From Acidimicrobiales bacterium (GTDB taxonomy: Bacteria > Actinomycetota > Acidimicrobiia > Acidimicrobiales > Poriferisodalaceae): a stretch of DNA of 64,000 nucleotides. This document shows, in pieces, positions 19,033-35,604 of the stretch; the first letter of the stretch is position 1, and each line of letters begins with the position of its first letter. The notes beneath the pieces were generated by a model. That model saw only the letters and a program-made list of their open reading frames with translations. It did not search any database and had not been told where the DNA came from. A program made the position numbers and the translations under genes. The stretch lies in NCBI GenBank assembly GCA_965213585.1, contig CBDBZP010000005.1, forward strand, positions 1,329,376 through 1,393,375, in the 5' to 3' direction.

Positions 19033-19170
19033 CCGGCGAGACTGTCACGACCCCGGGCACCTCGGGCGCACGGACCCCAGCTCAGCGGGAACCACAGGGG
19101 CGCCCACGCCCGGTCGACGGAACCAGCCGGTGCGACAGAGGAGCGCAGCGCTGGCCTCTTGGGGTGAGCG

Positions 19171-21621
19171 ATGGGCGCCCCGAGCAACGATGCCACCGAC
19201 ACGACCGCCGTGCTGGCCGCCGCCGTCGCCGCCGCCGGCGGGGTGTCGGCCGGGGTGGTGTGGGCGGCGGCGCAGCTGACCCAGCGGGCGGCGACAGGGC
19301 GGTGGGCGCCGATTGATCTGGCCGGCACCGTCGCAGCACTACCGCGGCTTCCTTCCACGGCCGCCCGCCCGGCTGGGGCATGGGAGCACACCGCTGGCCT
19401 GGTTCTGCCGCCCGGGTTGTTCTGGGTCGCTGTCGTCGTGGTCGCCGCCCCCGCCGTGGCCACGGCCGTCGCGATCGCACGCCGGGCGAGCCGGTGGGGG
19501 GCCGGCTCGGTGCCCCGTCGGCGTCTCGGCGTCGACGCCAACCCGTGGCTGGCCAGCTCCGCCCAGCTCGCTGCGCTGACCACCACCCGCTCGGGGGCGG
19601 CGGGCCGGTTCATCCTGGCCCGCCACGGCCGCCGTCTGCTGGCCACGCCCACCGGGCGGGCCTCGGCGCGGGACCGGGCCCGGCGCCGGCCCCCCGGCGG
19701 GCGGGGGGCTGTGGCCATCATCGGCCCCTCCCAGTCCGGCAAGACCACCACGGTCATCGCCGGGCTCCTGGACTGGGACGGGCCGGTGGTGTGCTCGTCG
19801 GTCAAGACCGACCTCATCGGCCCCACCATCGGCTGGCGGTCCACCCTCGGGCCCGTCGCCGTGTTCGATCCCGCCAACGCCACCCCCAATGACACCTGCG
19901 CCTGGTCGCCGCTGCGCACCGCCTCCGACTTCGTCGGCGCCGTCGAGGCCGCCCGGCGCATCTCCGAGGCCACCCCCCGCAACTCGGGGTCCGTCACCAA
20001 CGAGTCCTTCTGGGACAACCTGGCCCAGCAGCTCCTCGGTACCTGCCTGTGGGCCGCCGCCCGAGGCGGGCGGACCATGGGCGACGTGGTCGCCTGGGTG
20101 GCCACCCACGACGGTGTGGACCCCGAACGCTCCGATCTGTTGGGCCTCCTCGCTCGTTTGGCCCCGCCCGGGCACCCCGGGCCCCTCGCCCCCCGCCCCG
20201 CCGCCATGCCCGAGGACCCCGATGCCCGGGCGGCGTGGGAGGACTACGACCAGGCCCTCCAGCCCCTGGCCGGGATCCGGGCCGCCCCACCCGACACCCG
20301 CTCCAGCGTCTACATCACCGCCCAGACGCTGCTGTGGCCCTGGTCCCAGCGCACCGGCGCCGCCTCCGCGCAGGGCCGCAGCGTCGACCTGGGCTGGCTC
20401 TACGCCGACCCCGACACCGGCCGGCCACGCCCTGCCAGCCTGTACCTGTCGGCCCCTCTGGGCGCCCAGGCCCGCTACGCGCCCGTCATCGGCGGACTCC
20501 TCGGTGACCTCATCGACCAGGTCTTCGCCCACCACGCCCGCACCGGCGAACGCCTCGACCCGCCCCTGCTGGTCGTCATCGACGAGGCGGGCCAGACCCC
20601 CCTCGAGCAGCTCCCCCAGATCGCCGCCACCGTCGCCGGTCTGGGTGTGCAGCTCGTCACCGTCTGGCAGTCCAAGGCCCAGCTCGACACCGTCTACGGC
20701 ACCGGCGCCGACACCGTGTTGACGAACCACCCCACCAAGCTGTTCTTCTCGGGGCTGTCCGACTCCGCCACCCTCGCCTACCTGCGGGACCTCACCGGCG
20801 TCGAGCACGTCCCCACCCGCAGCCTCACCCGCCCGGCCGGGCTGCTCGCCACGGGCGGACGTTCGGAGAACGCCACCACCCACGAGCTGTCTCTCCTTCC
20901 CGCCCACGTCATCCGCCAACAGGCCCGCGGTCACGCCCTGCTCGTGCACGCCAACCTGGCCCCCGCCGCCGTCGCCGGCCGTCACGCCCCCAGCGACCGC
21001 CACCTCCGCCGACGGGCCCGCACCCCCCTGCCCGCCGGCACCCCCACCATCGGCCCCACCGCACCAGCCGACCCTCCGGCCGGGCCGGGCGACCGGTCCG
21101 TGACCCATCACCCCGACGGGCGGCCGGCCCCACCCGGCGTCGACCCCGCCACCGGTGAGATCCTCGAACCCAGCCCACCCCCAGCACGCGCTGCCGGTGC
21201 TGACGGCGGGGCCGGGAGCTACGTCTACCCGCCCGGCGTGACCGTCTTCTCCCACCCGCCGGCCGGCCCCGACGGCGACCAGGACGACCCCGACCCGTGG
21301 TCCGCCGACGTGGTCGACCCCGTCCTCGACGACCCCACCCTGGCCGGCACCCAGCTCAGCTTCGACCTCGACCTCGACCTCGACCCCGACCCGCCCGGAC
21401 CCGACGGCCCGGCCGGCGACGGGTCCGCAGCCGCCGGCGACAGCGGGGACGGTCCCGCTGACCTTTACCTCGACCTCGACGGTTGGGGCCCGGTCGAGGA
21501 CCTCGACCTCGACGGCTACGGGCCCGCCGACGGCGCCGACCCCTGGCCCCCGACGACGGCACCGGCGGCGACGGTGACAGCGCTGGGCGACCGTCACTGC
21601 CCGGAGCAGGGCCCACGGTGA
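19171..21621 (+). CDS. Type IV coupling protein (VirD4/TraG family) with a long acidic Pro/Asp-rich tail
   Basis: Walker A AIIGPSQSGKTTT. Walker B PLLVVIDEAGQ. The stretch GVQLVTVWQSKAQLDTVYG is also typical. Confidence 0.85.
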   Translation: MGAPSNDATDTTAVLAAAVAAAGGVSAGVVWAAAQLTQRAATGRWAPIDLAGTVAALPRLPSTAARPAGAWEHTAGLVLPPGLFWVAVVVVAAPAVATAVAIARRASRWGAGSVPRRRLGVDANPWLASSAQLAALTTTRSGAAGRFILARHGRRLLATPTGRASARDRARRRPPGGRGAVAIIGPSQSGKTTTVIAGLLDWDGPVVCSSVKTDLIGPTIGWRSTLGPVAVFDPANATPNDTCAWSPLRTASDFVGAVEAARRISEATPRNSGSVTNESFWDNLAQQLLGTCLWAAARGGRTMGDVVAWVATHDGVDPERSDLLGLLARLAPPGHPGPLAPRPAAMPEDPDARAAWEDYDQALQPLAGIRAAPPDTRSSVYITAQTLLWPWSQRTGAASAQGRSVDLGWLYADPDTGRPRPASLYLSAPLGAQARYAPVIGGLLGDLIDQVFAHHARTGERLDPPLLVVIDEAGQTPLEQLPQIAATVAGLGVQLVTVWQSKAQLDTVYGTGADTVLTNHPTKLFFSGLSDSATLAYLRDLTGVEHVPTRSLTRPAGLLATGGRSENATTHELSLLPAHVIRQQARGHALLVHANLAPAAVAGRHAPSDRHLRRRARTPLPAGTPTIGPTAPADPPAGPGDRSVTHHPDGRPAPPGVDPATGEILEPSPPPARAAGADGGAGSYVYPPGVTVFSHPPAGPDGDQDDPDPWSADVVDPVLDDPTLAGTQLSFDLDLDLDPDPPGPDGPAGDGSAAAGDSGDGPADLYLDLDGWGPVEDLDLDGYGPADGADPWPPTTAPAATVTALGDRHCPEQGPR

Positions 21622-22472
21622 GGCCACCGTTCCGGTACTTCGGCGGCAAGACGCAGCTGGCCGGCTGGATCGCCGCCCAGCTGCCCCCGCACCGCACCTA
21701 CGTCGAACCCTTCGCCGGCAGCGCAGCCGTGCTGTTCGCCAAGACCCCCTCACCCAACGAGGTCCTCAACGACCTCGACACCAACCTCGTCACCCTCCTG
21801 CGGGTCATACGGGACCGGCCCGACGAGCTGACCGCCCGCCTCGAGCTCACCCCCTGCGCCCGGGCCGAGTTCCTCGCCTGCCGGGACCGCCTCACCGCCG
21901 CCGGACCCGCAGATGACCTCGAACGGGCCCGGGCCACGTTCGTGCTCATCACCCAGTCCGTCTCGGGGACCACCCGCGCCGGGACCGGCTGGTCCACCTC
22001 CACCCGCACCGGCACCAACCGGGCCCGCACCGTGCAAGCCGGCCTGACCCGCCTGCGGGCCGCCGCTGACCGCCTGTCCGGGGTGATCCTCGACAACCGG
22101 CCCGCCGTCAAGATCATCGACCTCTACGGCACCCCTGACGCCGTCATCTATGCCGATCCCCCCTACCTCGGTGCTGTCCGCCACCGCCCCGACGGCACCA
22201 CCACCCCCACCGCCGGCGCCTACACCGTCGAGATGATGGGCGAGCCCGACCACCGGGCCCTCGCCACCGCCCTCAACAGCACCCCCGCCGCGGTGCTGGT
22301 GTCGGGCTACGCCAGTGACCTGTACGACGACGACCTCTACGCCGGCTGGTACCGCACCGAGATTGGCGTCACCACCCGCGCCGCCAACCACACCCAACCC
22401 TCCCGCAACCGGGCTCGGGCCGTCGAGGTGATCTGGTCCAACCGGCCCCTCGGCACCGGGCGGCTGTTCTGA
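21618..22472 (+). CDS. DNA adenine methyltransferase (Dam/D12 class), with no partner endonuclease seen
   Basis: FRYFGGKTQLAGWI, EPFAGSAAV and YADPPYLG. GTGA overlap with the coupling protein gene. Confidence 0.9.
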   Translation: MRPPFRYFGGKTQLAGWIAAQLPPHRTYVEPFAGSAAVLFAKTPSPNEVLNDLDTNLVTLLRVIRDRPDELTARLELTPCARAEFLACRDRLTAAGPADDLERARATFVLITQSVSGTTRAGTGWSTSTRTGTNRARTVQAGLTRLRAAADRLSGVILDNRPAVKIIDLYGTPDAVIYADPPYLGAVRHRPDGTTTPTAGAYTVEMMGEPDHRALATALNSTPAAVLVSGYASDLYDDDLYAGWYRTEIGVTTRAANHTQPSRNRARAVEVIWSNRPLGTGRLF

Positions 22473-23065
22473 TGGGCGCCCACCCCGACCGACACGGGCC
22501 CACCCCGCCGCCGGCGGGCCCGTCCCCCCACACCCCCGACCGCAGCGAAGCGTCCCAGCACGCCCGGGCACGCCCCCCGGCCGGGCCCGTGACCCGCATC
22601 GGGGTCCGCCTGGGACCCGACCCCTACGCCGAACCCGGCGCCGTGCCCATCGGCTCGGCCTACACCCAGCAATGGTGGCTGCCCGTCCTCGGGCCCACCT
22701 GCACCTGCCTGCTCGCCCACGCCGCCCGCCACGCCGACACCTACACCGCCGACTGGCAGTGGCCCGCCGTCGACGACCTCGCCGTGGCCGTCGGCCTCGG
22801 CGCCAAACCCCGCCACGGGTTCAACAGCCCCCTCCTACGGGCCCTGGACCGCCTCGCCCAGTTCCAGGTCGCCACCTGGGTCAGCACCCCCCGCTCCGCC
22901 ACCGACGACGCCCGCATCGCCATCCACGACACCGTCCGCCTCGTCCCCGAACCGGCCACCCGCCGCTGGCCCGACGCCATGCGCGCCGACCACGCCGCCG
23001 ACCTCGCCGACCTCGCCCGCACCCGGCGCACCCCACCCGCCGCCCACCAACCCCGCCGACGGTAA
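22472..23065 (+). CDS. Hypothetical protein
   Basis: ORF track. Coupled to dam by a 1-nt overlap. No motif recognised. Confidence 0.5.
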   Translation: MGAHPDRHGPTPPPAGPSPHTPDRSEASQHARARPPAGPVTRIGVRLGPDPYAEPGAVPIGSAYTQQWWLPVLGPTCTCLLAHAARHADTYTADWQWPAVDDLAVAVGLGAKPRHGFNSPLLRALDRLAQFQVATWVSTPRSATDDARIAIHDTVRLVPEPATRRWPDAMRADHAADLADLARTRRTPPAAHQPRRR

Positions 23066-23079
23066 GGAGCACCCCCGCC

Positions 23080-23952
23080 ATGACCCACCCCGACACCACC
23101 CCCGGCGACCCGATCGACCCGGCCCTGGGCGACGCGATCCGAGGCCGCCTCGGCTGGTTCGCCCCGAGCGGTGTCCAGGCCAAACTCCTGGCCGCATCCC
23201 TTCACGGCCACGAACTCACCTACCCGCGCCTGTTCGCCACCCTGGCCCGCATGCCCGACGTCCTGGCCGGGCCCCGCCCCGACCGGGACGGCTACGTCGT
23301 CGCCCTCACCGCGCCCACCCGGCTCCCGGCCCGGAACCTCATCACCACCGATATCGAGGCGGCCTGCGTGCGTGCCCTTCACCAGAAGGCCCCCACCACC
23401 ATCACCAGCGCCCGCGACCTGCACGTCCTGGCCGAGATCGCCCCCCACGCCACAGCACTGGCCGGCGCAGCCGGCCACCTGGCCCGGCCCGCCGCCCAGG
23501 TCCTCGACGGCGTCGGCGCCTACCACCACTACAACCGGGACCTCCCCGCCGCCGAGACCGCCCTCGTCGCCGCCCTCGCCCACCACACCACCGCCGGCGG
23601 CCCCCACAGCCGCCCCGCCGCCGACACCCTCCGCGCCCTCGCCGACGTCCACCTCGACGCCGGCAACACCACTACCGCCCTCACCGCCCTCCAGGCCGCC
23701 ACCGCCGCCTACGAGACCGCCTGCGGGCCCCGCAGCCCCGAAGTCGCCGAAACCGCTCTCACCGTCGCCGGCGTCTACGCCACCGGGGGCCGTCCCGACC
23801 TGGCCCGCGAGCTCCTCGACGAGATCGACCGCCGCCTCGACGCCCCCGCCGGTCACCCCCTCCGCCAAGACCTCGACGACGAGCTCGCCCGCCACCCCCC
23901 ACCGGCCCGGCCCGCCCGGCACCTCGCCACCGTCCCCGCCCCGGCCCGATGA
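23080..23952 (+). CDS. TPR-like repeat protein
   Basis: ATG 23080 behind taaggag. The C-terminal half has Ala-rich helical repeats (TLRALADVHLDAGNTTTALTALQAATAAYE...). Confidence 0.55.
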   Translation: MTHPDTTPGDPIDPALGDAIRGRLGWFAPSGVQAKLLAASLHGHELTYPRLFATLARMPDVLAGPRPDRDGYVVALTAPTRLPARNLITTDIEAACVRALHQKAPTTITSARDLHVLAEIAPHATALAGAAGHLARPAAQVLDGVGAYHHYNRDLPAAETALVAALAHHTTAGGPHSRPAADTLRALADVHLDAGNTTTALTALQAATAAYETACGPRSPEVAETALTVAGVYATGGRPDLARELLDEIDRRLDAPAGHPLRQDLDDELARHPPPARPARHLATVPAPAR

Positions 23953-24383
23953 GCGACCCCGACCCGCACCACCAGGGCCACGCGCACCCCGCTGCCGCCG
24001 TCGGACCCCGCGCCGCAGCCGACGAGGTCGCCGACGCCACCCGGCGACTCAACCACACCCTCACCGGCACGAGATGGCTCACCGTCGCCGACCTGTACGG
24101 CATCGTCGGCTCCCTCGACCAGGCCGCCACCCGCATCCAGAACACCCTCGGCGTCCTCGCTGCGGGAGTCGACGCCCACCGCACCATTGGCGGTCACCGC
24201 CACGACCACCACGCCGACCCCGCCACCGAGCTGGCCGACGCCCGAGCCCACCTCGAGCGCTCCGTCGCCTACACGGCCGCCATCAGCAGCTTCCTGGGCC
24301 AGGCCCAAGCCGGACTCGGCCACCTGACCGAACCGAACCCGTCACGACCGGAGCCAGGACCCAGCACCGCCCGCGTCCGGTAA
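23949..24383 (+). CDS. Hypothetical protein
   Basis: ORF track. ATGA overlap with the upstream gene. Confidence 0.5.
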   Translation: MSDPDPHHQGHAHPAAAVGPRAAADEVADATRRLNHTLTGTRWLTVADLYGIVGSLDQAATRIQNTLGVLAAGVDAHRTIGGHRHDHHADPATELADARAHLERSVAYTAAISSFLGQAQAGLGHLTEPNPSRPEPGPSTARVR

Positions 24384-24439
24384 CGCCGCTATCCTGCACC
24401 CGCACCGGGAGGCGACGCCGACAGGGACGGGCCTGCCGC

Positions 24440-24718
24440 CGTCAAGATGGCTTTGGCTCGGCGCTGTTCGGCGTTCTCCCGCTTCAACCGCTTGACCCCG
24501 GCCGCCTCGGCGCCGGTCACCCCCGGCCGACGGCCGGCGTCGGTCTCGCCTGACGAACGCACTTCCGCACCGTCTCAGCCGTCGGGCCCAGCTTCTCGGC
24601 CACCGCACAGATCGTCTCCCGCTGCGAACTGTGCTCGTGCTCATGGTCGAGCACCATCCGCACCGCCCGCTCCCGGCATCTCCACCGGGTACCGACCCGG
24701 CGTGCGCTGGTGTGTCAT
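24440..24718 (-). pseudogene. IS3-family transposase OrfA remnant (at least 2 frameshifts, no OrfB)
   Basis: Own translation across frames: ...RERAVRMVLDHEHEHSSQRETICAVAEKLGPTAETVRKCVRQAE/TDAGRRPGVTGAEAAGVKRLKRENAEQRRAKAIL. Confidence 0.7.
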
Positions 24719-24828
24719 CGCTCCATCCTCTCAATGCGTGGAGCCTCCGCCAGACCCGGGGGCGCTTCAATGTCACACCCCGCTCCTATAATGAGGGCCG
24801 TTCAAACAAGAGCGAAAGGCGGCCGTCC

Positions 24829-25995
24829 ATGGCCTTCGAAGTGTCCGACCGCGGCTTCATCTTCTGGCCTGTCGGCTGCGGTGACAGCACCACGATCAAG
24901 GTGAACGACAACGTCTTCCTGCAGGTCGACCTTCGCCACACCGAGAAATCCGAGGACGACGACGAGCCGACCAGCCCCGTCGTCGACGAGCTCATGGAGC
25001 TCCTGCCGGAGATCAAAGGCACGAAGTACCTGGCGGTGTTCGCGCTCACCCACCCCGATCTCGATCACTGCCAGGGGTTTCAGATCCTCATGGAGAAGGT
25101 CGAGGCCGGCGAGCTCCGCATCGGCGAGCTGTGGTTCACGCCACGGATCTTCCGCGAGTACGACACCGATGAGGGCCTGTCCGAGGACGCCCAAGCGTTT
25201 TGCGACGAGGCGACCCGGCGGGTCGAGGCCATGGTCGGCAAGTCCGAGGACGAGATCGAGTCCGGCGACCGGGTAATGGTCATCGGGAACGACGACATCC
25301 TCGACGATGACGACTACAAGCAACTGCCTGACCGGTTCAAGACCCATCCGGGCCAGAACATCGTCGTGCTCGACGGAGCGAGCCACGAGGGCACGTTCCG
25401 GGCGTTCATTCACGCGCCGTTCGGCGACGACTCCGCCGGCGAGCGGAACCGGACGAGCCTCGCGATGCAGGTGACCCTGACCGACGGTGAAGGGTCAGGA
25501 CAAGTCCTTCTGTTCGGGGACCTCGACTACCCGGCGCTCAAGCGGATCTTCGACTACAGCGACGCCGAGGACCTTGCTTGGGACGTGCTCCTCGCGCCGC
25601 ACCACTGCTCGAAGTCCGCCATGTATCTCCAGGAGGAATTTGACGAACAGGCCGTCCTGAAGAAGGACATCGTAGTCGCCATGACCGACGCCGCCGGCGA
25701 GACCGGTTGGGTCGTCTCCTCCTCCGTGAAGGTGCCGGCCACGAACCAGCCGGGCGACAACCCGCCGCATGCGAAGGCAAAGGCGCAGTACGAGGCAATC
25801 GCCCCGGACGGGTTCCTGTGCACTGGCGACGACGGAGGCAGCGACGACCCGATCGTGTTCGCGGTCGGCGCCACCGGAATCTCGCTCCTCACGTCTGTCG
25901 ATGCCGGTGAGTCGAAGGTTGCGGCCGCGATCACGGCGGCTCGGGGCGGAACCGAGCCGCACGGGCAACAGGTCGGCTTCGGCCGACCGGCATGA
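24829..25995 (+). CDS. Metallo-beta-lactamase-fold protein (first gene of the cassette)
   Basis: ATG 24829 behind gaaagg. Motif LTHPDLDHCQG (25048-25068), an HxHxDH-like site. Later FGDLD and LLAPHHCSKS. GC visibly lower than the surroundings. Confidence 0.8.
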   Translation: MAFEVSDRGFIFWPVGCGDSTTIKVNDNVFLQVDLRHTEKSEDDDEPTSPVVDELMELLPEIKGTKYLAVFALTHPDLDHCQGFQILMEKVEAGELRIGELWFTPRIFREYDTDEGLSEDAQAFCDEATRRVEAMVGKSEDEIESGDRVMVIGNDDILDDDDYKQLPDRFKTHPGQNIVVLDGASHEGTFRAFIHAPFGDDSAGERNRTSLAMQVTLTDGEGSGQVLLFGDLDYPALKRIFDYSDAEDLAWDVLLAPHHCSKSAMYLQEEFDEQAVLKKDIVVAMTDAAGETGWVVSSSVKVPATNQPGDNPPHAKAKAQYEAIAPDGFLCTGDDGGSDDPIVFAVGATGISLLTSVDAGESKVAAAITAARGGTEPHGQQVGFGRPA

Positions 25996-28900
25996 CACCA
26001 GGGCAGGTACAGGCTGAAGCTGAGCTGCGACGAATCGCTGCGGCGTCTCCAGGAGCGATCGAGATCGACAGCATCACTCACACCGGAAGCTCGATGGTCG
26101 CTGTCGTCGGTGTCGACTGCCGCGGCTTCGACCACGTCGAGGGCGGCATCAAGCTCCGGCAGCGTGAATGGTTCGATATCTCGGTCCCGGCGAAGTTCCC
26201 GTTCAAGCCGCCTTCGGCGTGGGTACGTCACGAACGTTGGGCCGGGGCTCCGCACGTTCAGTGGAAGCGGTCCCTCTGTCTCTACGTCGCTACGGCCGTT
26301 GAGTGGAACCCGTCCGACGGCATGTACGGCTTCCTCGACCGCCTCGTCCGCTGGCTACGTGAAGCAGCGCTGAACCAGCTCGACCCTGTCGGAGGTCCCC
26401 AGCATCCCCCCGTTGCGTACCCGTCGCCCGGAACCCCACTCTTCATCCCACGCGTTGATACCCCGGCCGTCGGTCTTGCGTCGTGGGCTGGGTTCGCCGA
26501 GTTCACGTCCCCGGCTGACCGTCGCCACGACCTCGTCGGGTGGCACAAGATCGGCAGCGACAACCTGCGGCCGGAGGCCCGTTACGCGGCAGCTGTCCTC
26601 CTCAACGAGCCTCTGCCGTTCGAGTTCCCGAGGTACCTCGGCCACCTCATCCGTGATCTCGAACGCGGACGGTTCGACAAGGACGTGCTGTACCTGCTCC
26701 TCGGGATCGCCGCTCAGCGCCTGAAGGAGGACGAGCCGCTGTACGTCGTCATTGGGACGCCGATGCGGGCCACGGCAGAAGGCGAACCTCGCCAGCATCT
26801 CGCCGTGTGGCGGCTCGATGCCGAGCCTGCGGACTCGTTCAAGACGCTGCTCATCGACGCCGGCGACAACCAACGGATGAGGGAGCTGCTGGCGCGGCTT
26901 GAAGAAGCCGTCGACAAGTGGGCGCAGGTCGCGCCGGTCGAATGGTGCAAGGTCCGTGAGGCACGGCCAGAGGTCACACAGGACCGCGCTAGTGGGTCGC
27001 CCCTGCGGGTATTCGAGGGGCGGAAGGTCGCCGTATGGGGTTGCGGAGCGATCGGCTCCCACGTCGCCGAGATTCTCGTGCGGGCAGGCGTCGCTCACCT
27101 CGTGCTCCGCGATAGCGGGATCGTCGCACCGGGTGTCCTCAGCCGGCAGTGGTTCGACGACTCCGACATCGGTGAGAGCAAGGCAGCCGCGCTGAAGGAC
27201 CACCTTCTTGCCATCAACCCCGACCTCCAAGTTGACGCCCACCACGGCGACGTCATCACCGACAGCGGGATCGAGTCCGACTGGACCGACGGCGCCTCGC
27301 TGGTGGTCGAAGCGACCGCAAACAACGCGGTCTCTCGGTACCTCGAAACACGCCGGATGAACTCGTCTCGCGCCGCGCATGTCGCAACCCTGGTGTTCGG
27401 GCACACCGCTGAGCACGGGCGCGCCACGTTCATCCCATCCGAATCAGGTGCCGGGCCGGCGGACGCCGCACGGAACGCCAAACTCGCCGCCCTCCGGAAC
27501 CCGGACCTCCGAGCGTTCGCCGACGAGTTCTGGCCCGACCCGCCGCGCACCGCCTACTTCCAGCCCGAGCCTAGGTGCTCGGAACCGACCTTTACGGGCT
27601 CCGAGGCAGAGGTCTCGGCGTTGACGGCGTACATGGTCGGCTTCGTCGCACAGGAATTTCATTCGGGACAGGAGTCGATCTCGGCGTTCTACGCGTCGGT
27701 CGCAGACGATGGCCCCAACAGCTCCGTCGTCCGGTTCGCCGCCGACCTCGTGCTCAACGAACCCTTCGGCGGCTACGAGGTTCGAATCGCGGCCTCCGCC
27801 CTCGCTGAGCTTCGGGCCTGGACGCGGCGAAGCGAACGGAACGCGCCGGGCCACGAAACAGGAGGAGTCCTCTTCGGGGAACGGGACGACGCCCTGCAAG
27901 TCATCTGGGTCACCGATATCCTCGGTCCTCCGCCGGACAGCCAGGCGTCGCCGTGTGCGTTCATTTGCGGCATTGATGGGGTCGACGATGCCGCTGCGTA
28001 CTTTCAAACACGCGCTCGCGATTCGTCGTCGCCGATTGGCATGTGGCACACCCACCCCGACGGCCCCCCGCGTCCGAGCCCGACCGATCGCGGCGGCATG
28101 GCACAGCTCGTAGGCAACGACGACCGGCCCCTGCCGAAGCAGCTGTTGCTCATCGTCGGCGGCAGCCGGGAGTCGCACAACCTCGCGGCGTACACGTATG
28201 ACAGCGACACGCCGCCGCCAGCGACGTTCGAGGTCGCCACTCGGCCCCTGCCGGTGGACGGGCGACCTCCCCATCGGATTGGCCTCGCCCTTTCAGGGGG
28301 CGGCTTCCGAGCCGTCGCGTTCCACCTCGGCGTTCTCCGTGGCCTACACGACCGGGGCGTCCTCGAGCACGTGGACGTGGTGTCCTCGGTGTCGGGCGGC
28401 TCGATCATCGCTGCGATGTGGGCGTACAGCGACGACTCGTTCGAGGAGTTCGACGCCCGAGTCGTATCACTGCTCAAAGGCGGCCTGACCGGGAAGCTCC
28501 TCGGCGTTGCACTGCGCCGAGGGCCGCAAGCCGCAGCGTCGAGCGTCGTCGCAGCAGCCGGCTCAGCGTGGAACCTCGCCGCCGGGATCGCCCGACGTGT
28601 CACGGGGACAGCGAGACGACCCGCCGAGCCGCCGTTCCGGCGTGCGGTGACACGCACGCGGGCCCTCGAGGACGTCTTCGCCGCCCGCTTGTTCGGACAG
28701 GCAACGGTTGACGAGCCACTGCGGCCCCTGGCGACCGTCATCAACGCCGCCGAGCTCCGGAGCGGCAACGCGTTCCGCTACGGCAGTGCAGAAGGCGGCT
28801 CCAGCCGCTTCGGCCGGCTCACCGGGCCGGCGCCGACAGTCGCGCGCGCTGTAACCGCCAGCGCCGCCTACCCCGTCGCGTTCCCCGCGATGGACGACGT

Positions 28901-29402
28901 GCTCGCCTTCACCGGCTTCGACGGCACCGAGCGCACGGAGCGCGTCCTTCTCACTGACGGAGGCGTCTACGACAACCTCGGCGTCACAGCTCTTCAACCC
29001 GGCCGGAAACCCCGCTACAGCACGAACGTTCACCCGGTGGACTTCATCGTGTCCGCCGACGCCGGCTATGGCGTCCTTGACACCGACAAGTGGCCGTTGT
29101 GGTGGCCCACACGGATGAAGCGATCCTTCGAGTCCGTGTATCGGAAGGTCCAGGACGCCGGTAGGGGCCTCCTGCACGAGCACCGTGACAACAGAAAGAT
29201 CCGCGGGTTCGCGCTTCCGTTCCTCGGCATGAACGACCGGGCGCTACCGCTCCGGCCACCCGACCTCGTGCCGCGCGACGCCGTCGCCGGATACCCGACG
29301 AACTTCGCAGCGATGACCGACGACGACCTCGCGCTCCTCACCCTGCGCGGCGAACAGCTCGTGCGGCTCACGATCGAAGCGCACTGCCCCGAGATCGCGT
29401 GA
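25992..29402 (+). CDS. Four-module fusion protein: E2-like + E1-like (ThiF/MoeB) + JAB/JAMM peptidase + patatin-like phospholipase
   Basis: E2-like APHVQWKRSLCLY (Cys96, 26277-26279). E1 Rossmann VAVWGCGAIGSHVAEILVRAGV...LSRQ (27039-27056) and Cys529 (27576-27578). JAMM E622 plus HTHPDGPPRPSPTD (28047-28088). Patatin GGGFRA (28296-28313), SVSGG (28386-28400) and DGG (28956-28964). ATGA overlap with the MBL gene. Confidence 0.9.
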   Translation: MTPGQVQAEAELRRIAAASPGAIEIDSITHTGSSMVAVVGVDCRGFDHVEGGIKLRQREWFDISVPAKFPFKPPSAWVRHERWAGAPHVQWKRSLCLYVATAVEWNPSDGMYGFLDRLVRWLREAALNQLDPVGGPQHPPVAYPSPGTPLFIPRVDTPAVGLASWAGFAEFTSPADRRHDLVGWHKIGSDNLRPEARYAAAVLLNEPLPFEFPRYLGHLIRDLERGRFDKDVLYLLLGIAAQRLKEDEPLYVVIGTPMRATAEGEPRQHLAVWRLDAEPADSFKTLLIDAGDNQRMRELLARLEEAVDKWAQVAPVEWCKVREARPEVTQDRASGSPLRVFEGRKVAVWGCGAIGSHVAEILVRAGVAHLVLRDSGIVAPGVLSRQWFDDSDIGESKAAALKDHLLAINPDLQVDAHHGDVITDSGIESDWTDGASLVVEATANNAVSRYLETRRMNSSRAAHVATLVFGHTAEHGRATFIPSESGAGPADAARNAKLAALRNPDLRAFADEFWPDPPRTAYFQPEPRCSEPTFTGSEAEVSALTAYMVGFVAQEFHSGQESISAFYASVADDGPNSSVVRFAADLVLNEPFGGYEVRIAASALAELRAWTRRSERNAPGHETGGVLFGERDDALQVIWVTDILGPPPDSQASPCAFICGIDGVDDAAAYFQTRARDSSSPIGMWHTHPDGPPRPSPTDRGGMAQLVGNDDRPLPKQLLLIVGGSRESHNLAAYTYDSDTPPPATFEVATRPLPVDGRPPHRIGLALSGGGFRAVAFHLGVLRGLHDRGVLEHVDVVSSVSGGSIIAAMWAYSDDSFEEFDARVVSLLKGGLTGKLLGVALRRGPQAAASSVVAAAGSAWNLAAGIARRVTGTARRPAEPPFRRAVTRTRALEDVFAARLFGQATVDEPLRPLATVINAAELRSGNAFRYGSAEGGSSRFGRLTGPAPTVARAVTASAAYPVAFPAMDDVLAFTGFDGTERTERVLLTDGGVYDNLGVTALQPGRKPRYSTNVHPVDFIVSADAGYGVLDTDKWPLWWPTRMKRSFESVYRKVQDAGRGLLHEHRDNRKIRGFALPFLGMNDRALPLRPPDLVPRDAVAGYPTNFAAMTDDDLALLTLRGEQLVRLTIEAHCPEIA

Positions 29403-29930
29403 ACTCGCACCCGTCACCGCTGGAGACGGCATCGCTCCCGCACGCGAATGTTTATAAGAGCCCTCAACGAAACAGGCCGCCCGCTGCCTATGACCGTCGA
29501 CGCTCTACGCCATGCACAATCGACTGGGAGATCGGTACGGCGGTCCCGCCCCAAGTGGCGAGATCCGGTGACCCACCGGAGCAGCCCCAATGTGCCGTTG
29601 GCGGACATGGGTGGCGAGCGCCCGGAACGGCACGACGGCCGACGCAACGGCTCGTGCGCGACTCGGCGTTCGTCACGCTGCGTACAGGCCGGGACGAGGA
29701 CTCTGTCGGCGTGAGTGCGCGGTTCCTACTAGTCGCTGACGGCCCCTCCGCCTCGCGTGCTGGCGGTGACGTCTCGCTGTTCGGAGCCGAACCACCTGAC
29801 GATGGTGGTCCGTCGTCGTCGGACCCGGCAGGGCGGGCCGTGACCGACCCGCTCAGCGTAGGCCAGCCGGCCATCGGGTCGACCCGGTCCGTGGGTGGCA
29901 CCCGCCGTGGGCTGCGGGATCACCGACGGG

Positions 29931-31136
29931 TCAGTTGCCCGGGGTCCTTCCGCCGGCAGCGTCGCCTCGGCGACCCGTGGTTGGGGGCGGCGCGATCTGG
30001 GCGGTGATCCAGGCGGCCAGGCCGGGGAGGGCGAACTCGACGTGGCCGTAGCCGGCCGGGGTGAGGAGATGGTGCTCGCGAATGAGGCTGTCGCGCACCG
30101 GTGAGAGCTGGCGGTGGGTGCGACCCAGGGCCTCGGCGATGGCGCCGGTCGGCACTCGCTCGACGCCGAGCGACGCCGCTGCGGTCAGGTAGCGCTGCTC
30201 TCCGGGGCTCAGTCGATCCCACCGGCCGGCGTAGAGGTTGCGTTCGAGCTGGCGGGCCGCCTCGGCTGCGCCGGTGCGGGCGTGGGCCACGCCGACGACG
30301 TCGATGTCGGCGGCGGCGTCCCAGGTGTGCTTGCCTGCCAGTTGGATGGCGTAGGGGTAGCCGCCGGTGGCGGCCCACAGCACGTCGAGGGCGTCAGGGT
30401 GCACGTCTCTCCCCGCTCGCAGGAACGGCGCCTCCAGCGCGTCAAGGGTCCCGTCCCGGTCGAGGTTGGCCAGCACCGTCAGGTCCTGACGCTCGATGAA
30501 GGTCGTCCCTGGGGTGGCGGCGAGAACCTCGCGAACGTGGGGTAACCCGGCGGCCAGCAACGCCACCGGGAGGCGCCGCTGGTTGGCGACGAGCTGCAGT
30601 GTGCCCGACAGCGCAGCCAGGTCGGCGGCGGAGGCGCCTTGGAGCTCGTCGACGACCAGGAGCACTGACAGGCGCCGCTCGGCGGCCTGGCGGCCGAGGT
30701 CCTCGACGAGCGCCGTCACAGAACGGGCCGGGACGGGCTGGGACCTTGTGAACTCGGCCCGGGCGCCGCCCAGTGGGGTGGTGGCCTCGATGCTGGCGGG
30801 CCGCACGCTGCGCCCGGCCCGGCGCAGCGTGCCGACCAGTCGGGGCTCGAGGCCCGGGAGCTGCTCGGCGAGCATCTGGGCTAGACCCCAGTCGGGGCGG
30901 CCCGCCCAGTTCAGGTCCAGCCAGCCCCACTCGTCGATGACGTGACGGCGGACGTGGTCCAACAGCACGGTCTTGCCCGTCCCGCGGGGCCCGACGACGA
31001 TGGTGTGATACTCGCCCCGGCCCGGGCCCCGCTGGAGGTTCATCAGGATCTGGTGGATCAGCTCGCCCCGCCCGGCCAGCACCGGCGGGGCCACCCCGTA
31101 GCCGGGGTTGAACGGGTTCTCGCCGTAAGACTCCAT
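29931..31136 (-). CDS. AAA/ORC-like ATPase with a C-terminal winged-helix domain
   Basis: Walker A VVGPRGTGKTVLL. Walker B LLVVDELQ. C-terminal LSPGEQRYLTAAASLG...IAEALGRTHRQLSPVRDSLI. Confidence 0.75.
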   Translation of the reverse strand: MESYGENPFNPGYGVAPPVLAGRGELIHQILMNLQRGPGRGEYHTIVVGPRGTGKTVLLDHVRRHVIDEWGWLDLNWAGRPDWGLAQMLAEQLPGLEPRLVGTLRRAGRSVRPASIEATTPLGGARAEFTRSQPVPARSVTALVEDLGRQAAERRLSVLLVVDELQGASAADLAALSGTLQLVANQRRLPVALLAAGLPHVREVLAATPGTTFIERQDLTVLANLDRDGTLDALEAPFLRAGRDVHPDALDVLWAATGGYPYAIQLAGKHTWDAAADIDVVGVAHARTGAAEAARQLERNLYAGRWDRLSPGEQRYLTAAASLGVERVPTGAIAEALGRTHRQLSPVRDSLIREHHLLTPAGYGHVEFALPGLAAWITAQIAPPPTTGRRGDAAGGRTPGN

Positions 31137-31231
31137 AAGACTCCGGCCCTCGGTGCGAAGGAGGAATGTGCTGAGCTGGTTCTAGACTGTACTAGACTGT
31201 TGTTTGCGGCTGGGGCGGCGGGCTACGGGCC

Positions 31232-33478
31232 TCACGGGTCGCTGCGGGGCCCGATGGGCGCTCGGGCCAGGACGATGTCGTCGAGGTAGAGGTGGGTGGG
31301 GCGGTCGACGCCGGCGGGGCCGCCGTAGAAGGTGTCCATGCGGATCTCGTTGATTCCCCAGCCGAAGGTCTGGTGGGTGGGCCCGTAGAAGGTGACGGTC
31401 AGGTCGAGGCCTTCGGTGCCGTTGACCCAGCCGGTGATGCGGCCGTCGTGGCGGCCGGGGGTGTTGATCCGGTAGCGGACCTCGATGGTGTTCCACGCCC
31501 CTTTGGTGAGCCGCAGGGGGGCGCCGTTGGGGCGGCGGAAGTAGGGGTCGATGCCGACGTAGCGGCCGTCGGGGCGGGGGCCGTCGCTGATGTGCTCGCT
31601 GCCGGCGGCCCAGACGTAGAAGTAGCCGACGAGCGCGCACCCGGAGCGCCACATGAGCCGGCCCGACCAGGCCGACTGGTGGTAGGTGCCGCCACCTGAG
31701 CCGGATCCGGGTGCGGTGCCGGCTCTCGGGTTGCCGGCCAGGCCGGGGAGCTTCCCGCCGACGGTGTCGCACCCGAAGTCGCCCGGGACGTAGAGCCGGT
31801 AGCGGAGGTACAGCTCGTCTTCCCAGGCCCGGGGGTGACCGAGGGCGGTGAGGGTCTGGTGGTAGCGGGCCCCGAACTTGGCTGAGTCGGTGTGGGCGGG
31901 CTGGCTGTGGGGGTTGAAGTCGACCCGCAGGGCTTGGCCGTGACCGCCGGGCGGGGCGGGCACGGCGCGGAGGCGCCGCCCGTCGGGGCCGGTGCCGTCG
32001 TCGGGCCCGAACGTGGCCGAGATCCCGTAGTCGGCCCACCAGCGCGGTCCGGGGTGGTCGTAGGTGCCCATCCAGATGACGTCGGCCCGGCCGGCGAGGC
32101 GGGCCTCGGCGGTGGGGGTGTCGGCGTCGCCCAGCACCCGCCCGGGGACCGCCGACGCCCCGGCTACGTCGCCAGGGTCAGCCGGGGGCGCGGGTGGTGG
32201 CGGCGGGGGGGTCTCGAACGCGACGTGAAAATGGTGGCGGTGGAGGCTGTTGGTGAACCAGCCCGGCCGGCGGGCCAGGTCGGCCCAGGGCTGGCCGACC
32301 TCGTCGGGGCTGAGCAGGTCAGCGGGCCGCCCGGCCAGGTAGTCGGCTAGGGCCCGGGCGTGGGGGTTGGTGGCGGTGACGGGCACCGCCGGGCTGTCGG
32401 CGGGTCCGACCAGGGCGATGTCGGTGGCCCGCCCGTAGTAGTGGTTCGAGACCGAGCAGCCCGGCCCGGTGTTGGCGCCGCCGGGGAGGACGGCGCAGCG
32501 GGAGTGGCCGGTGGCGAAGTTGATCAGGTGCAGCCGCCACCGCCCGGCCAGCTCGGCCAGGAGGGCCACGAGGCGCCAGTCCACCGTGCCCGCTTCGAGG
32601 TCGGCCCGGGCGGCGGCGCTCATGGTCACGTTCGGGTGCGCCAGGAGCACGGCCACCTCGACGGGACCGCCGCCGGTGAGGGTGTAGCGGGCGGCCCAGG
32701 CCAGGACGTCGTCGGCGTAGACGCTCGAGCGGTTGTAGGCCCACAGGGCCCGGCGTTCGTCGTTCTCGTCGTCGATGCGGCCTCCGGCGGCGTGGCAGAG
32801 GTAGTCGGCGGCGCCGACGGCGGCGTCGGGGTAGGTGTGGGGGCTGGCGGTGCCGTCACCGTCGGCGTCGACACCCCACGCGGCCCAGGTGGCGGTGATG
32901 AACTGCATGGGTCCGGTGGCCCGGTCCCAGCGGGGGTCGTCGTGCCAGGGGCTCCCCCCGGCCGGGACGGCGATGGCGGCGACGCCTGGTGAGCCGTCGA
33001 GGGCGGGGCCGACGATGGGTGGGGTGACGTCGAGGTCGGCGGTGAGGGTGGCGCTCCCGTAGCGGCCGTGGTCGGACTCGATCTTGGCCACGGCGGCGAG
33101 GAGCTGCCAGCGCAGCCCCGGGCAGCGGGCGGCGGCGTCGGCGTAGACGCCGAGGAGCACGGCGGGGATGTCGGCGACGGCGCCGCCGGCGACGGCGGGC
33201 TGGGTGAGACGGGGGGCGGCCACCAGCAGCGGCAGACCCATCGTCGTGGCCAGCATCCCGGTGACCGCGGCGGCGGCCACGATCGCTCTGGGGCGGCCTC
33301 GCCGTTGCTGTCGGCGGCGGGCGACCCAACGGAGGGCGGGCAGGGCGGGACCGGTCACGTCTCTCCCGAGAGTCCACCCGGCAGCCCGGGTGCCGCCCGC
33401 TCGGGTCCGGCGCCCATGTGGGCGGTAGCGGCGCGACGGATCGGCGGGGGGCGGCCTCTTGGGGTTGGGAGGCGCCAC
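31232..33478 (-). CDS. Three-domain cell-wall hydrolase: lytic transglycosylase + LAS/M15-type metallopeptidase + C-terminal polysaccharide-lyase/concanavalin-like domain
   Basis: SLT-like LLAAVAKIESDHGRYG...GPMQF. LAS motifs SNHYYGRATDI and HRHHFHVAF. The C-terminal part GGTYHQSAWSGRLMWR...WNTIEVRYRINTPGRHDGRITGWVNG resembles the PL14-like fold. Confidence 0.75.
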   Translation of the reverse strand: MAPPNPKRPPPADPSRRYRPHGRRTRAGGTRAAGWTLGRDVTGPALPALRWVARRRQQRRGRPRAIVAAAAVTGMLATTMGLPLLVAAPRLTQPAVAGGAVADIPAVLLGVYADAAARCPGLRWQLLAAVAKIESDHGRYGSATLTADLDVTPPIVGPALDGSPGVAAIAVPAGGSPWHDDPRWDRATGPMQFITATWAAWGVDADGDGTASPHTYPDAAVGAADYLCHAAGGRIDDENDERRALWAYNRSSVYADDVLAWAARYTLTGGGPVEVAVLLAHPNVTMSAAARADLEAGTVDWRLVALLAELAGRWRLHLINFATGHSRCAVLPGGANTGPGCSVSNHYYGRATDIALVGPADSPAVPVTATNPHARALADYLAGRPADLLSPDEVGQPWADLARRPGWFTNSLHRHHFHVAFETPPPPPPAPPADPGDVAGASAVPGRVLGDADTPTAEARLAGRADVIWMGTYDHPGPRWWADYGISATFGPDDGTGPDGRRLRAVPAPPGGHGQALRVDFNPHSQPAHTDSAKFGARYHQTLTALGHPRAWEDELYLRYRLYVPGDFGCDTVGGKLPGLAGNPRAGTAPGSGSGGGTYHQSAWSGRLMWRSGCALVGYFYVWAAGSEHISDGPRPDGRYVGIDPYFRRPNGAPLRLTKGAWNTIEVRYRINTPGRHDGRITGWVNGTEGLDLTVTFYGPTHQTFGWGINEIRMDTFYGGPAGVDRPTHLYLDDIVLARAPIGPRSDP

Positions 33479-33514
33479 CGCAGGGGTGCGCCGCCCGAGA
33501 CCGAGAGGAGTCGA

Positions 33515-33802
33515 ATGGTGATGCCGGCACAGGCGGTAGTGGCCCAGGTGGGGGGCAGCCCGGACAACTCAGGGCCGGGTTCGGAGCTGATCCAGCAGGC
33601 CACGAACTGGCTGATGTCCTACGGGCTGTGGGCGTGCCTGGCGGCCGTGCTGGCCGGCGCCGCCCTGTACGCCCTGGGCCAGTCGTCGGGCTCGTACGGG
33701 GGTGGGGGCACCGGCAAGAAGATGATCATCGGCGGCGCCGCCGGCGCCGCCATCATCGGGCTGGGCCCGTCGGTCATCAACGCCGTCTTCAACGCCACCT
33801 GA
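33515..33802 (+). CDS. Small two-TM membrane protein (possible VirB2/TrbC-like pilin analogue)
   Basis: ATG 33515 behind gagaggag. Reads ATNWLMSYGLWACLAAVLAGAALYALG...GGGGTGKKMIIGGAAGAAIIGLGPSVI. Confidence 0.5.
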   Translation: MVMPAQAVVAQVGGSPDNSGPGSELIQQATNWLMSYGLWACLAAVLAGAALYALGQSSGSYGGGGTGKKMIIGGAAGAAIIGLGPSVINAVFNAT

Positions 33803-33808
33803 TCGCCG

Positions 33809-34501
33809 GTGGCCCGCACCCGCTTGCTGATCGTCGCCGCCGTGGCCCTGGTGACCGGGGCCGCCGCCGGGCGCCTGACCGCCCCCAGCCCCCACCCCGA
33901 CACCGAACCTGACCGGCCCGCCGGGACGACCGTCGACGTGGAGGCGCCGGCGGCGGACGGGTGGGCGGGGCTGGTGGGCCGGGTGGTGGAACTCAACGAC
34001 GCCAACCAGGCCTGGGTGTACTCGACCGACGCCGACGTCGCCGCCGAGGTGGCGGCGATGACGGCGCCGGGGGCCCGGGACGGGATCGTCACCGACGTGA
34101 CCGCCCAGCTGGGCGGGCTACGGGACCGGCTGGACCGCCGGGCGCCGGTGTGGTGGGTCTCGCGGACGCTGGCGGTGCGGGTCACCGACGCCGACTTCGA
34201 AGCGGGGACGGCCACGGCCGAGGCGTGGGCGGTCCACGTCCTGTCCCAGCGCGGCACCGTCGACCCGACCGTCACCTGGACCCTCACCGCCCTGGACCTG
34301 GTCCGCGTCGACGGGGTGTGGCTCCTGGCCGCGGTGTCAGACGGCCCGGGACCCGCCCCGGCCCCCGGGCCGGGGGCGTGGCATGTCGACGCCGTCACCC
34401 TCGACGCCCGCCTGGACGGCTTCGCGCTCATCGGCGCCGACGGCGGCCCCCAGTTCCCCCCGCCCCCCAGCCCCGGCGACGGGCGGGAGGGGGGACGGTG
34501 A
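33809..34501 (+). CDS. Membrane-anchored hypothetical protein
   Basis: GTG 33809. A single N-terminal TM segment. Confidence 0.5.
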   Translation: MARTRLLIVAAVALVTGAAAGRLTAPSPHPDTEPDRPAGTTVDVEAPAADGWAGLVGRVVELNDANQAWVYSTDADVAAEVAAMTAPGARDGIVTDVTAQLGGLRDRLDRRAPVWWVSRTLAVRVTDADFEAGTATAEAWAVHVLSQRGTVDPTVTWTLTALDLVRVDGVWLLAAVSDGPGPAPAPGPGAWHVDAVTLDARLDGFALIGADGGPQFPPPPSPGDGREGGR

Positions 34502-35604
34502 GCGGGCGTCCGGCCGGTGCGTGGGTGCTGGCGTTCAACCCGTTCGAGCTGCTGGACACGGCGGTGGGCTGGATCGCGGGGCGGGCCGGGGACGTGATCG
34601 CCGGCACGGCCGAGGGGATGCTGAACCTGGTGGCCGGCTGGGTCATCGACGGGGCCTTCTACGTGACCGGCCTGGTCTTCGACGCCGTGTTCGCGGTCAG
34701 CTCCCCGCAGTTGACCTCACCGTGGTTCTCGGGGCCTACGGGCCCGTACCGGATGATGGTCAACGTCGGCGCCAGCCTCCTGGTCGGCGCGGTGTGCGTG
34801 GGGGTCATCCGGGGGGTCGCCACCGGCGACGTGGGCGCCATGACCCGACGGTTCGCGCTGGGCCTGCCCGGGGCGGCGTTCATCCTGGCCACGGTGGTGG
34901 TGTTCGCCCAGGTGGGCGTGGACGTCGTCGACGAGCTGTCGGCATGGGTGTGGGACACCGGCGGCACCAACGCCGAAGCCCTCGCCGACGGGCTGCTGGG
35001 GATCAGCGACCAGGTGGCGGCCACCTCGGGGGTGATCCCGCTGGTGATGGTGGTCGTGGCGTTCGTGTTGATGGTGGCCGCCCTGTTGGTGTTCGTGGTG
35101 CTGATCGTGCGCTCGGCGCTGATCTACCTGCTGGTGGCACTCATCCCCCTGGCCGTGGTGGCGCTGGTCACCGGCCACCGGGCCGTGTTCGCCAAGACCA
35201 TGGAGCTGCTGGTGGCCTTCGTGGCCGCCAAGCTGGTGGTGGTCCTGGCGTTGGTGCTGGGCACGGCCGCCTTCACCGGCACCGGCGCAGCCGAGTTCAC
35301 CAGCCCCCCTCCGGGCGGACCCGACGGCACCCCCGCCGCGCTGGTCGCCACCGTCGACGGCTGCGACGACACCGCGGCGGCGACGTGCGTGGCCGACACC
35401 ACCGGCCTGGCTCAGGCCATCGGGGCCATGTTCGTGGGGGTGGTGGCGTTCGGGTTGGGGACCTTCAGTCCGTGGCTGCTGATGCGGCTCATGCCCGGCG
35501 GGGAGGCCACCCAGACCGCCCACCCGTCCCCGGGGGGGATCATGCACGTCGCCCACACCGCCGGCACCCTGCGGCCCCGCCCCCGCCCGACCCGGGGGGC
35601 CTGA
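34498..35604 (+). CDS. Polytopic membrane protein, VirB6/TrbL-like by position and topology
   Basis: GTGA overlap with the upstream gene. At least 6 hydrophobic segments. Confidence 0.55.
   Translation: MSGRPAGAWVLAFNPFELLDTAVGWIAGRAGDVIAGTAEGMLNLVAGWVIDGAFYVTGLVFDAVFAVSSPQLTSPWFSGPTGPYRMMVNVGASLLVGAVCVGVIRGVATGDVGAMTRRFALGLPGAAFILATVVVFAQVGVDVVDELSAWVWDTGGTNAEALADGLLGISDQVAATSGVIPLVMVVVAFVLMVAALLVFVVLIVRSALIYLLVALIPLAVVALVTGHRAVFAKTMELLVAFVAAKLVVVLALVLGTAAFTGTGAAEFTSPPPGGPDGTPAALVATVDGCDDTAAATCVADTTGLAQAIGAMFVGVVAFGLGTFSPWLLMRLMPGGEATQTAHPSPGGIMHVAHTAGTLRPRPRPTRGA

Follow-up and report, generated by a model that had tools for sequence, protein, structure and literature searches.

Can an E1-like enzyme adenylate its substrate when the aspartate that holds Mg-ATP in related enzymes has given way to alanine? 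The question is raised by a fusion gene in a 64,000-nucleotide stretch of DNA from an Acidimicrobiales bacterium (hereafter the window; assembly GCA_965213585.1, contig CBDBZP010000005.1, positions 1,329,376 to 1,393,375 of the forward strand). Its 1136-residue product joins E2-like, linker, E1-like, JAB, and patatin domains, and is identified from its sequence as the cap2_3 component (E2-E1-JAB) of the known anti-phage system 6A-MBL, with a patatin phospholipase fused at the C-terminus; the gene for its metallo-beta-lactamase (MBL)-fold partner lies directly upstream. At the site in question the E1-like domain reads Glu-Ala-Thr-Ala-Asn (EATAN), and the Asp is missing throughout the family. 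Judging from the residues that the family conserves, the E1 domain is probably a working adenylation domain that binds Mg-ATP without the canonical carboxylate, an estimate that includes the variant in which a carboxylate is supplied from elsewhere.

The aspartate column in the family

The five codons GAA GCG ACC GCA AAC, in frame with the fusion gene (25992-29402), bear out the EATAN reading given in the preliminary description of this DNA, which had also placed, by eye, an alanine at the second Asp of the motif. This placement is upheld by a profile alignment, for which a hidden Markov model (HMM) of the E1 region from 121 homologues was aligned with Escherichia coli MoeB and ThiF (NC_000913), the two other ThiF-family proteins of the same genome, and a fragment of Enterobacter cloacae Cap2. 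The alignment is gap-free through the motif in all of these sequences, setting the family consensus vvIDaTASeaV against LVLDCTDNVAV in MoeB, VVLDCTDNMAT in ThiF, VVCCTDSH in the JAB-E1 protein of the same genome, and VIIDCTGDDGV in E. cloacae Cap2. In MoeB the motif has its second Asp at residue 130, and in ThiF at residue 127; hence, Ala443 falls in the MoeB D130 column and Glu440 in the D127 column. The Mg-coordinating Asp that follows strand 5 in canonical enzymes (MoeB D130, hUBA1 D576) is therefore Ala443 here. Furthermore, the end coordinates of independent phmmer matches to MoeB (1jw9_B), ThiF (1zud), and SAE2 (1y8q_B) agree with this register, which is fixed by both flanks, since many homologues read DCTASSAVR against DCTDNVAVR in MoeB. 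In the AlphaFold2 model, with a mean predicted local distance difference test (pLDDT) score of 80.4, residues 437-440 form a strand, residues 441-444 a loop, and residues 445-457 a helix, which is taken as the usual E1 layout at this motif. The mean pLDDT over residues 431-460, in blocks of ten residues, is 92, 83, and 85.

The preliminary description had treated the change as special to this protein; it is instead a signature of the whole clade (Table 1). Column 443 is Ala, Gly, Thr, Val, or Asn, mostly Ala or Gly, in 347 of the 347 distinct homologues. The following position (444, or +1) is Ser, Asn, or Asp in 92% of them; it lacks a carboxylate (Ser, Asn, Ala, Thr, Val, or Gly) in 329 and carries Asp in 18. 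Of 80 loci drawn from many phyla (Acidimicrobiia, Solirubrobacterales, Acidobacteriota, Planctomycetota, Chloroflexota, Proteobacteria, and Cyanobacteria among them), 68 read D-x-T-A-S and 78 hold Ala or Gly in the D130 column. The Asp is present in every canonical E1-like protein of the comparison sample (DCTDN, DATDN, DCSDN, DAIDS, DGADN, and CCTDS), the last two motifs being those of the MoeZ-like and JAB-E1 proteins of the same genome. What the homologues conserve is the absence of the Asp, whereas the exact EATAN is a minority variant of the family motif D-x-T-A-S, Glu440 being paired with Ala-Asn in only two of the 347 sequences. The family-wide loss of this hallmark E1 residue is real, and no description of it was found in the accessible literature.

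Table 1. Residues at three columns of the E1 motif in the homologue sets
Set	Column 443 (MoeB D130)	Column 444 (+1)	Column 440 (MoeB D127)
121 closest homologues	A 112, G 8, V 1	S 91, A 14, N 12, V 3, T 1	D 101, E 17, N 3
146 representatives (clustered at 50% identity)	A 132, G 10, T 2, N 1, V 1	S 107, N 17, D 17, A 4, T 1	D 136, N 7, E 3
347 distinct sequences, pooled	never Asp or Glu	polar (S/T/N/D) 320	D 310, E 26, N 11

An E1 domain without the loop carboxylate

Around the altered site, the Gly loop and the ATP-phosphate Arg and Lys of E1-like enzymes (MoeB G41, R73, and K86) are present. Gly350, Gly352, and Gly355 of the loop, together with Asp374, Arg385, Gln386, and Lys397, are invariant in the 121 homologues and the 146 representatives, and Arg364 is also among the invariant or near-invariant E1 residues. 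MoeB G41, R73, K86, and D130 correspond to hUBA1 A478, R515, K528, and D576 (PMC12355090). Cys529, the candidate E1 catalytic cysteine, is invariant in all 121 homologues and present in 143 of the 146 representatives. It is situated in a crossover loop whose residues 522-532 have pLDDT values below 50 in the model, as expected for a mobile loop; in Cap2, whose crossover loop bears the catalytic Cys548, the crystal shows disorder over residues 533-546 (bioRxiv 10.1101/2022.03.31.486616). Cys96, the candidate E2 cysteine, sits within an HVQW...LC.Y motif, and the JAB residues Glu622, His686, His688, Ser696, and Asp699 are invariant or nearly so in the family alignment. The invariance of the Gly loop, Asp374, Arg385, Gln386, Lys397, and Cys529, and the near-invariance of Cys96 and the JAB site, point to strong purifying selection on a complete catalytic set. 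In addition, Foldseek ranks Cap2 first among the structures resembling the model (7TO3; 643 columns, E 1e-23), and the E1 domain alone reaches template modelling (TM) scores of 0.76-0.84 against Cap2 E1 structures. The fold is thus of the Cap2 E2-linker-E1 type, with one cysteine on the E2 hairpin and one on the E1 crossover loop.

The strongest indirect evidence for E1 activity is the tail of the MBL partner. In 76 of the 80 related loci, which span many phyla, the gene immediately upstream on the same strand encodes an MBL homologue, and the C-termini of these proteins follow the pattern ...A-R-G...P-P...V-G-[F/Y]-G. Gly385 is invariant (71/71), position 384 is always aromatic, and Val382 and Gly383 are each found in 58 of the 71 sequences. 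Beyond G-[F/Y]-G come zero to four unconserved residues, and several homologues stop exactly at the Gly; in the window the tail reads ...QQVGFG followed by RPA. By its sequence, such a Gly tail with a variable extension looks like the tails of ubiquitin-like precursors and of the cyclases of the cyclic oligonucleotide-based anti-phage signalling system (CBASS), and the conserved V-G-[F/Y]-G provides a concrete substrate hypothesis for 6A-MBL systems.

In the course that we propose, the JAB domain would trim R-P-A after the ...VGFG of the co-translated MBL protein. The E1 domain would then bind Mg-ATP via the Gly loop, Asp374, Arg385/Gln386, and Lys397 and adenylate the exposed carboxylate of Gly385, and the acyl group would pass to Cys529 in the crossover loop, to Cys96 of the E2 domain, and on to a target. 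The JAB domain may also reverse the conjugation, as Cap3 does in CBASS. Throughout the Asp-less clade the Mg ion would be held without a loop carboxylate, the possible ligands being the ATP phosphates and water, the polar +1 residue (Asn444 in this protein and Ser in the majority of homologues), or Asp/Glu440 at the end of the strand. Such a course would parallel the handling of the cyclase by Cap2 and Cap3 in type II CBASS, where Cap2 adenylates the cyclase C-terminus and a Cap2-cGAS-AMP intermediate has been observed (bioRxiv 10.1101/2022.03.31.486616).

The same state of the motif extends beyond 6A-MBL. A tblastn search against plasmids gave six informative operons, two of the 6A type and four of CBASS. 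In the former, the E1 motif and the partner C-terminus are DATAD and ...PVGFGR on a Rhodococcus DK17 plasmid, and DATAS and ...KVGFGAE on a Rhizobium leguminosarum plasmid. Each of the four CBASS operons, all actinobacterial, comprises genes for a DncV-like cyclase with a GRAG C-terminus, an E2-E1 protein annotated as 'ThiF family', and a SAVED effector, with the motifs DATIS (Rhodococcus fascians), DATVS (Streptomyces), DASVN (Arthrobacter), and DATAN (Curtobacterium). Their E2-E1 enzymes have Asp at neither the D130 nor the +1 column and retain the GCG-x-x-G loop, the R-Q pair, the Lys, and the G-C-S-x-P-T-F cysteine loop. As Asp-less E2-E1 enzymes occur in CBASS operons as well, this state recurs, under selection, among Cap2-like enzymes acting on different substrates. 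The annotation of these four operons includes no Cap3/JAB gene. Among 400 genomes sampled for Cap2-like E1 domains from the class of a gammaproteobacterial 6A host, only approximately five matches have the size of an E2-E1 protein; their motifs (e.g., DATAD, DATGE, and DASAN) are suggestive. Whether the whole clade, comprising the 6a-type and some actinobacterial CBASS Cap2-like enzymes, performs C-terminal acyl-adenylation without a carboxylate in the canonical Mg loop is a finely balanced matter, and our estimate leans slightly towards doubt.

Four observations weigh against an active E1 domain. First, the D576A change in hUBA1, at the residue equivalent to MoeB D130, lowers the affinity for Mg-ATP and makes the adenylate transition state less stable (PMC12355090). 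Second, a comparison of the 329 sequences without Asp or Glu at +1 with the 18 bearing Asp there revealed no compensating acidic column in the E1 domain. Third, in the one Cap2 whose structure is solved an Asp follows one residue further on, so that this enzyme is no proof of function for a site devoid of Asp. Fourth, no biochemical data on any 6A-type E1 were found in the accessible literature.

Apart from 444, a single E1 column (508) separates the two groups, and it is more often acidic in the group that has the Asp. Ser or Asn444 as a newly acquired ligand fails because canonical E1s already carry Asn or Ser at +1 (TDN, TDS), so that the residue represents retention and not compensation. 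E. cloacae Cap2 (DCTGDD), whose D130 column holds Gly and whose +1 residue is Asp, was rejected as proof of a working Asp-less site; a one-residue bulge could restore its Asp to the D130 position, which makes it a weak precedent. The text that describes this enzyme names neither the Mg ligand nor an adenylation-site mutant (bioRxiv 10.1101/2022.03.31.486616).

A Mg site that is complete, with a locally rewired geometry and a carboxylate from elsewhere, is a sub-case of the active E1, so that the two estimates overlap; taken by itself it is rather unlikely. The carboxylate might come from the strand-end Asp/Glu440, from Asp333 beside the invariant Arg332, from Glu526 in the crossover loop, next to the candidate catalytic Cys, or from a residue of the dimer partner. 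Column 440 is fully conserved as Asp, Glu, or Asn, columns 333, 526, and 452 are at least 94% acidic, and the shifted Asp of E. cloacae Cap2 implies that the site tolerates shifts. The acidic columns conserved throughout the E1 domain are Glu327, Asp333, Asp374, Asp392, Asp436, Asp440, Glu452, Asp491, Glu526, and Glu540; the candidates among them are, however, equally conserved in the subgroup with Asp at +1, and none behaves as a compensating residue. Glu440 is paired with a non-polar residue at 444 in 12 of 26 of the homologues that carry it, against 15 of 310 for Asp440, a hint of coupling in the alignment that may reflect either a functional link or an effect of a single clade.

Much less probable is a pseudo-enzyme that binds the nucleotide and the MBL tail without adenylation, as a scaffold or sensor positioning the MBL, JAB, and patatin components, with Cys96 and the JAB site serving something other than conjugation. 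In its favour, the canonical Asp is absent family-wide, most members (329/347) lack the +1 carboxylate as well, and the Asp-to-Ala change cripples canonical E1s (PMC12355090). However, the nucleotide-binding residues and the crossover-loop Cys are invariant and the E2 Cys nearly so, unlike the known inactive halves of E1s (NAE1, SAE1, and the inactive adenylation domains of UBA1), whose ATP motifs are degenerate; the invariant C-terminal Gly of the partner with its putatively trimmed extension fits activation chemistry, and the same Asp-less motif recurs in the CBASS operons. A scaffold would have no evident reason to keep two thioester cysteines, and the phosphate-binding set and the Gly-ended substrate would likewise be superfluous. 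Activation of the tail by another chemistry or cofactor is very improbable, be it with another metal, with another nucleotide, or by adenylation that leads to intramolecular cyclisation, as in MccB, PaaA, and TcdA, in place of a thioester relay. The active site does depart from the canonical form, and MccB and PaaA are among the structural neighbours. These two rank well below Cap2 in Foldseek, however, and the Asp is as a rule retained in MccB-type enzymes; a relay is indicated by Cys529, which is invariant, and Cys96, which is nearly so, and a cyclisation would have no use for an E2 domain and a JAB peptidase.

The preliminary description had left the choice between a different adenylation geometry and a non-catalytic scaffold. 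The conserved catalytic set, the Gly tail of the MBL partner, and the CBASS operons favour the former and argue against the latter. From MoeB to human UBA1, this Asp counts as a defining feature of E1 catalysis, and a large, widely transferred defence family has replaced it and kept all the rest. If adenylation without the loop carboxylate is true, these enzymes are the natural, active counterpart of the Asp-to-Ala mutant that cripples ubiquitin E1s; the Asp would not be a universal E1 requirement, and there would be another way of holding Mg-ATP. For annotators, E1 domains should not be called inactive from the Asp motif alone.

The fusion gene and its cassette

The coordinates of the cassette features are listed in Table 2. 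Pfam assigns four domains of the fusion protein above the cut-offs, namely Prok-E2_A (50-150), ThiF (345-453), Prok-JAB (611-724), and Patatin (765-1000), and the order of the first three matches the triple-module E2-E1-JAB protein cap2_3. The NCBIfam model NF058523 '6A-MBL_cap2_3' matches residues 52-715 with 362.7 bits, above its cut-off of 320. By these matches, the gene belongs to a known defence system, of which it is an unremarkable, high-scoring member. 6A-MBL has reportedly been validated in Pseudomonas aeruginosa by van den Berg et al. in 2024.

The ATG at 25992 is supported as the start by the conservation of the first 34 residues in homologues. In the public protein record the start is placed 34 residues downstream (window 25992-26093), giving 1102 residues; the longer form is better supported, because these residues are conserved and the ATG overlaps the MBL stop codon (ATGA). 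In four related loci, the match to the fusion protein covers 4.4-5 kb instead of the usual 3.4 kb and the open reading frame (ORF) of the E1 domain is truncated, so that the gene may be interrupted by an insertion there.

Table 2. Features of the defence cassette and its neighbour (positions in the window)
Feature	Position	Strand	Description
MBL-fold partner gene	24829..25995	+	388 residues; NCBIfam NF058524 '6A-MBL_enzyme', 267.7 bits (cut-off 220)
V-G-F-G, MBL residues 382-385	25972..25983	+	conserved C-terminus; proposed adenylation/conjugation site
R-P-A extension after Gly385	25984..25992	+	three variable residues; proposed to be removed by JAB
Fusion gene	25992..29402	+	E2-like, linker, E1-like, JAB, and patatin domains; 1136 residues
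Cys96	26277..26279	+	candidate E2 catalytic cysteine; Cys in 118/121 homologues, gaps in the other 3
G-C-G-A-I-G, residues 350-355	27039..27056	+	Gly-rich nucleotide loop; aligns to the GLGGLG loop of MoeB
D374, R385/Q386 (MoeB R73 column), K397 (MoeB K86 column)	27111..27182	+	ATP-contacting residues
E440-A441-T442-A443-N444	27309..27323	+	EATAN motif
Cys529	27576..27578	+	candidate E1 catalytic cysteine; F-x-P-E-P-G-C-S-x-P-T-F crossover loop
JAB/JAMM peptidase domain	27822..28163	+	Pfam Prok-JAB, 43.8 bits; E622...H686-x-H688...S696-x-x-D699 intact
Patatin-like phospholipase domain	28284..28991	+	Pfam PF01734, 70.5 bits (cut-off 27.7), residues 765-1000
AAA_16 ATPase	29931-31136		convergent to the cassette

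The fused patatin is a membrane-attacking effector. Its motifs GGGFR, VSGGS, and DGGVYDN, which can be read in the sequence and are kept in the family consensus, supply the Gly-rich oxyanion element, the nucleophilic Ser, and the D-G-G/A of patatin-like phospholipases, and Patatin-17 is among the Foldseek matches of the model. The fusion is common, with approximately 99 of the 121 homologues having at least 1100 residues. In the MBL partner, T-H-x-D-x-D-H is invariant and replaces the usual H-x-H-x-D-H; His195, Asp231, His258, Cys260, and His314 are also invariant and His259 nearly so. Judging from these residues, the metal site is apparently specialised and intact.

The guanine-cytosine (GC) content of the defence cassette (approximately 24-30 kb of the window) is 66-70%, versus 75-77% in the flanks (window 19000-35000). 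Its neighbours encode a coupling protein of a type IV secretion system (T4SS), a Dam-type methylase, a TPR protein, the AAA ATPase, and a lytic transglycosylase (SLT/PL14 hydrolase). The low-GC cassette, lying amid genes of a conjugative element, is therefore cargo carried on it. Domain annotation found no nucleotidyltransferase in the neighbourhood, that is, no partner of the CBASS type. Elsewhere in the same genome (region 1194332-1195093) is a second, unrelated JAB-E1 fusion of 467 residues with the canonical C-C-T-D-S motif; it adjoins a 394-residue ORF of unassigned family and may belong to another conjugation-type system.

Comparison with known systems

The operon type 6a was defined by Iyer, Burroughs, and Aravind in 2006 as a triple-module E2-E1-JAB protein beside a specialised MBL (PMC1779556). 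In three later reports, 6A-MBL is cited as an anti-phage and anti-jumbo-phage defence of P. aeruginosa (PMC13276650; bioRxiv 10.1101/2025.09.30.679545; PMC11601596). The locus in the window, as known from its sequence, shares the two-gene core of specialised MBL and E2-E1-JAB protein, with overlapping genes and both products above the NCBIfam cut-offs. It differs in the C-terminal patatin of approximately 370 residues, which lies outside the NCBIfam model (665 positions), and in the E-A-T-A-N of this copy against the consensus D-A-T-A-S.

Fused E2-E1 proteins conjugate the signalling enzyme in type II CBASS, Pycsar, and MBL pathways (PMC11601596). With Cap2 and Cap3 of type II CBASS (E. cloacae Cap2, PDB 7TO3, 7TSQ, and 7TSX), the protein shares the E2-linker-E1 architecture and the crossover-loop Cys, and both systems have a JAB peptidase, lack a ubiquitin-like protein, and use the Gly-ended C-terminus of the partner enzyme as the substrate, putatively so in the case described here. 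However, the partner here is an MBL hydrolase and not a nucleotidyltransferase of the cGAS/DncV-like kind (CD-NTase), and the JAB domain is fused here and separate there. In E. cloacae Cap2 the loop Asp is found one position later (D-C-T-G-D-D), whereas the protein here has none, a state shared with some actinobacterial CBASS Cap2-like enzymes. Compared with MoeB, ThiF, and the eukaryotic E1s (UBA1, SAE2, UBA5, and ATG7), the nucleotide-binding fold, the Gly loop, and the R73 and K86 columns are alike (PMC12355090), and the polar Asn or Ser after the Asp column is retained; the Mg-binding Asp itself (MoeB D130, ThiF D127, hUBA1 D576) is replaced here by Ala.

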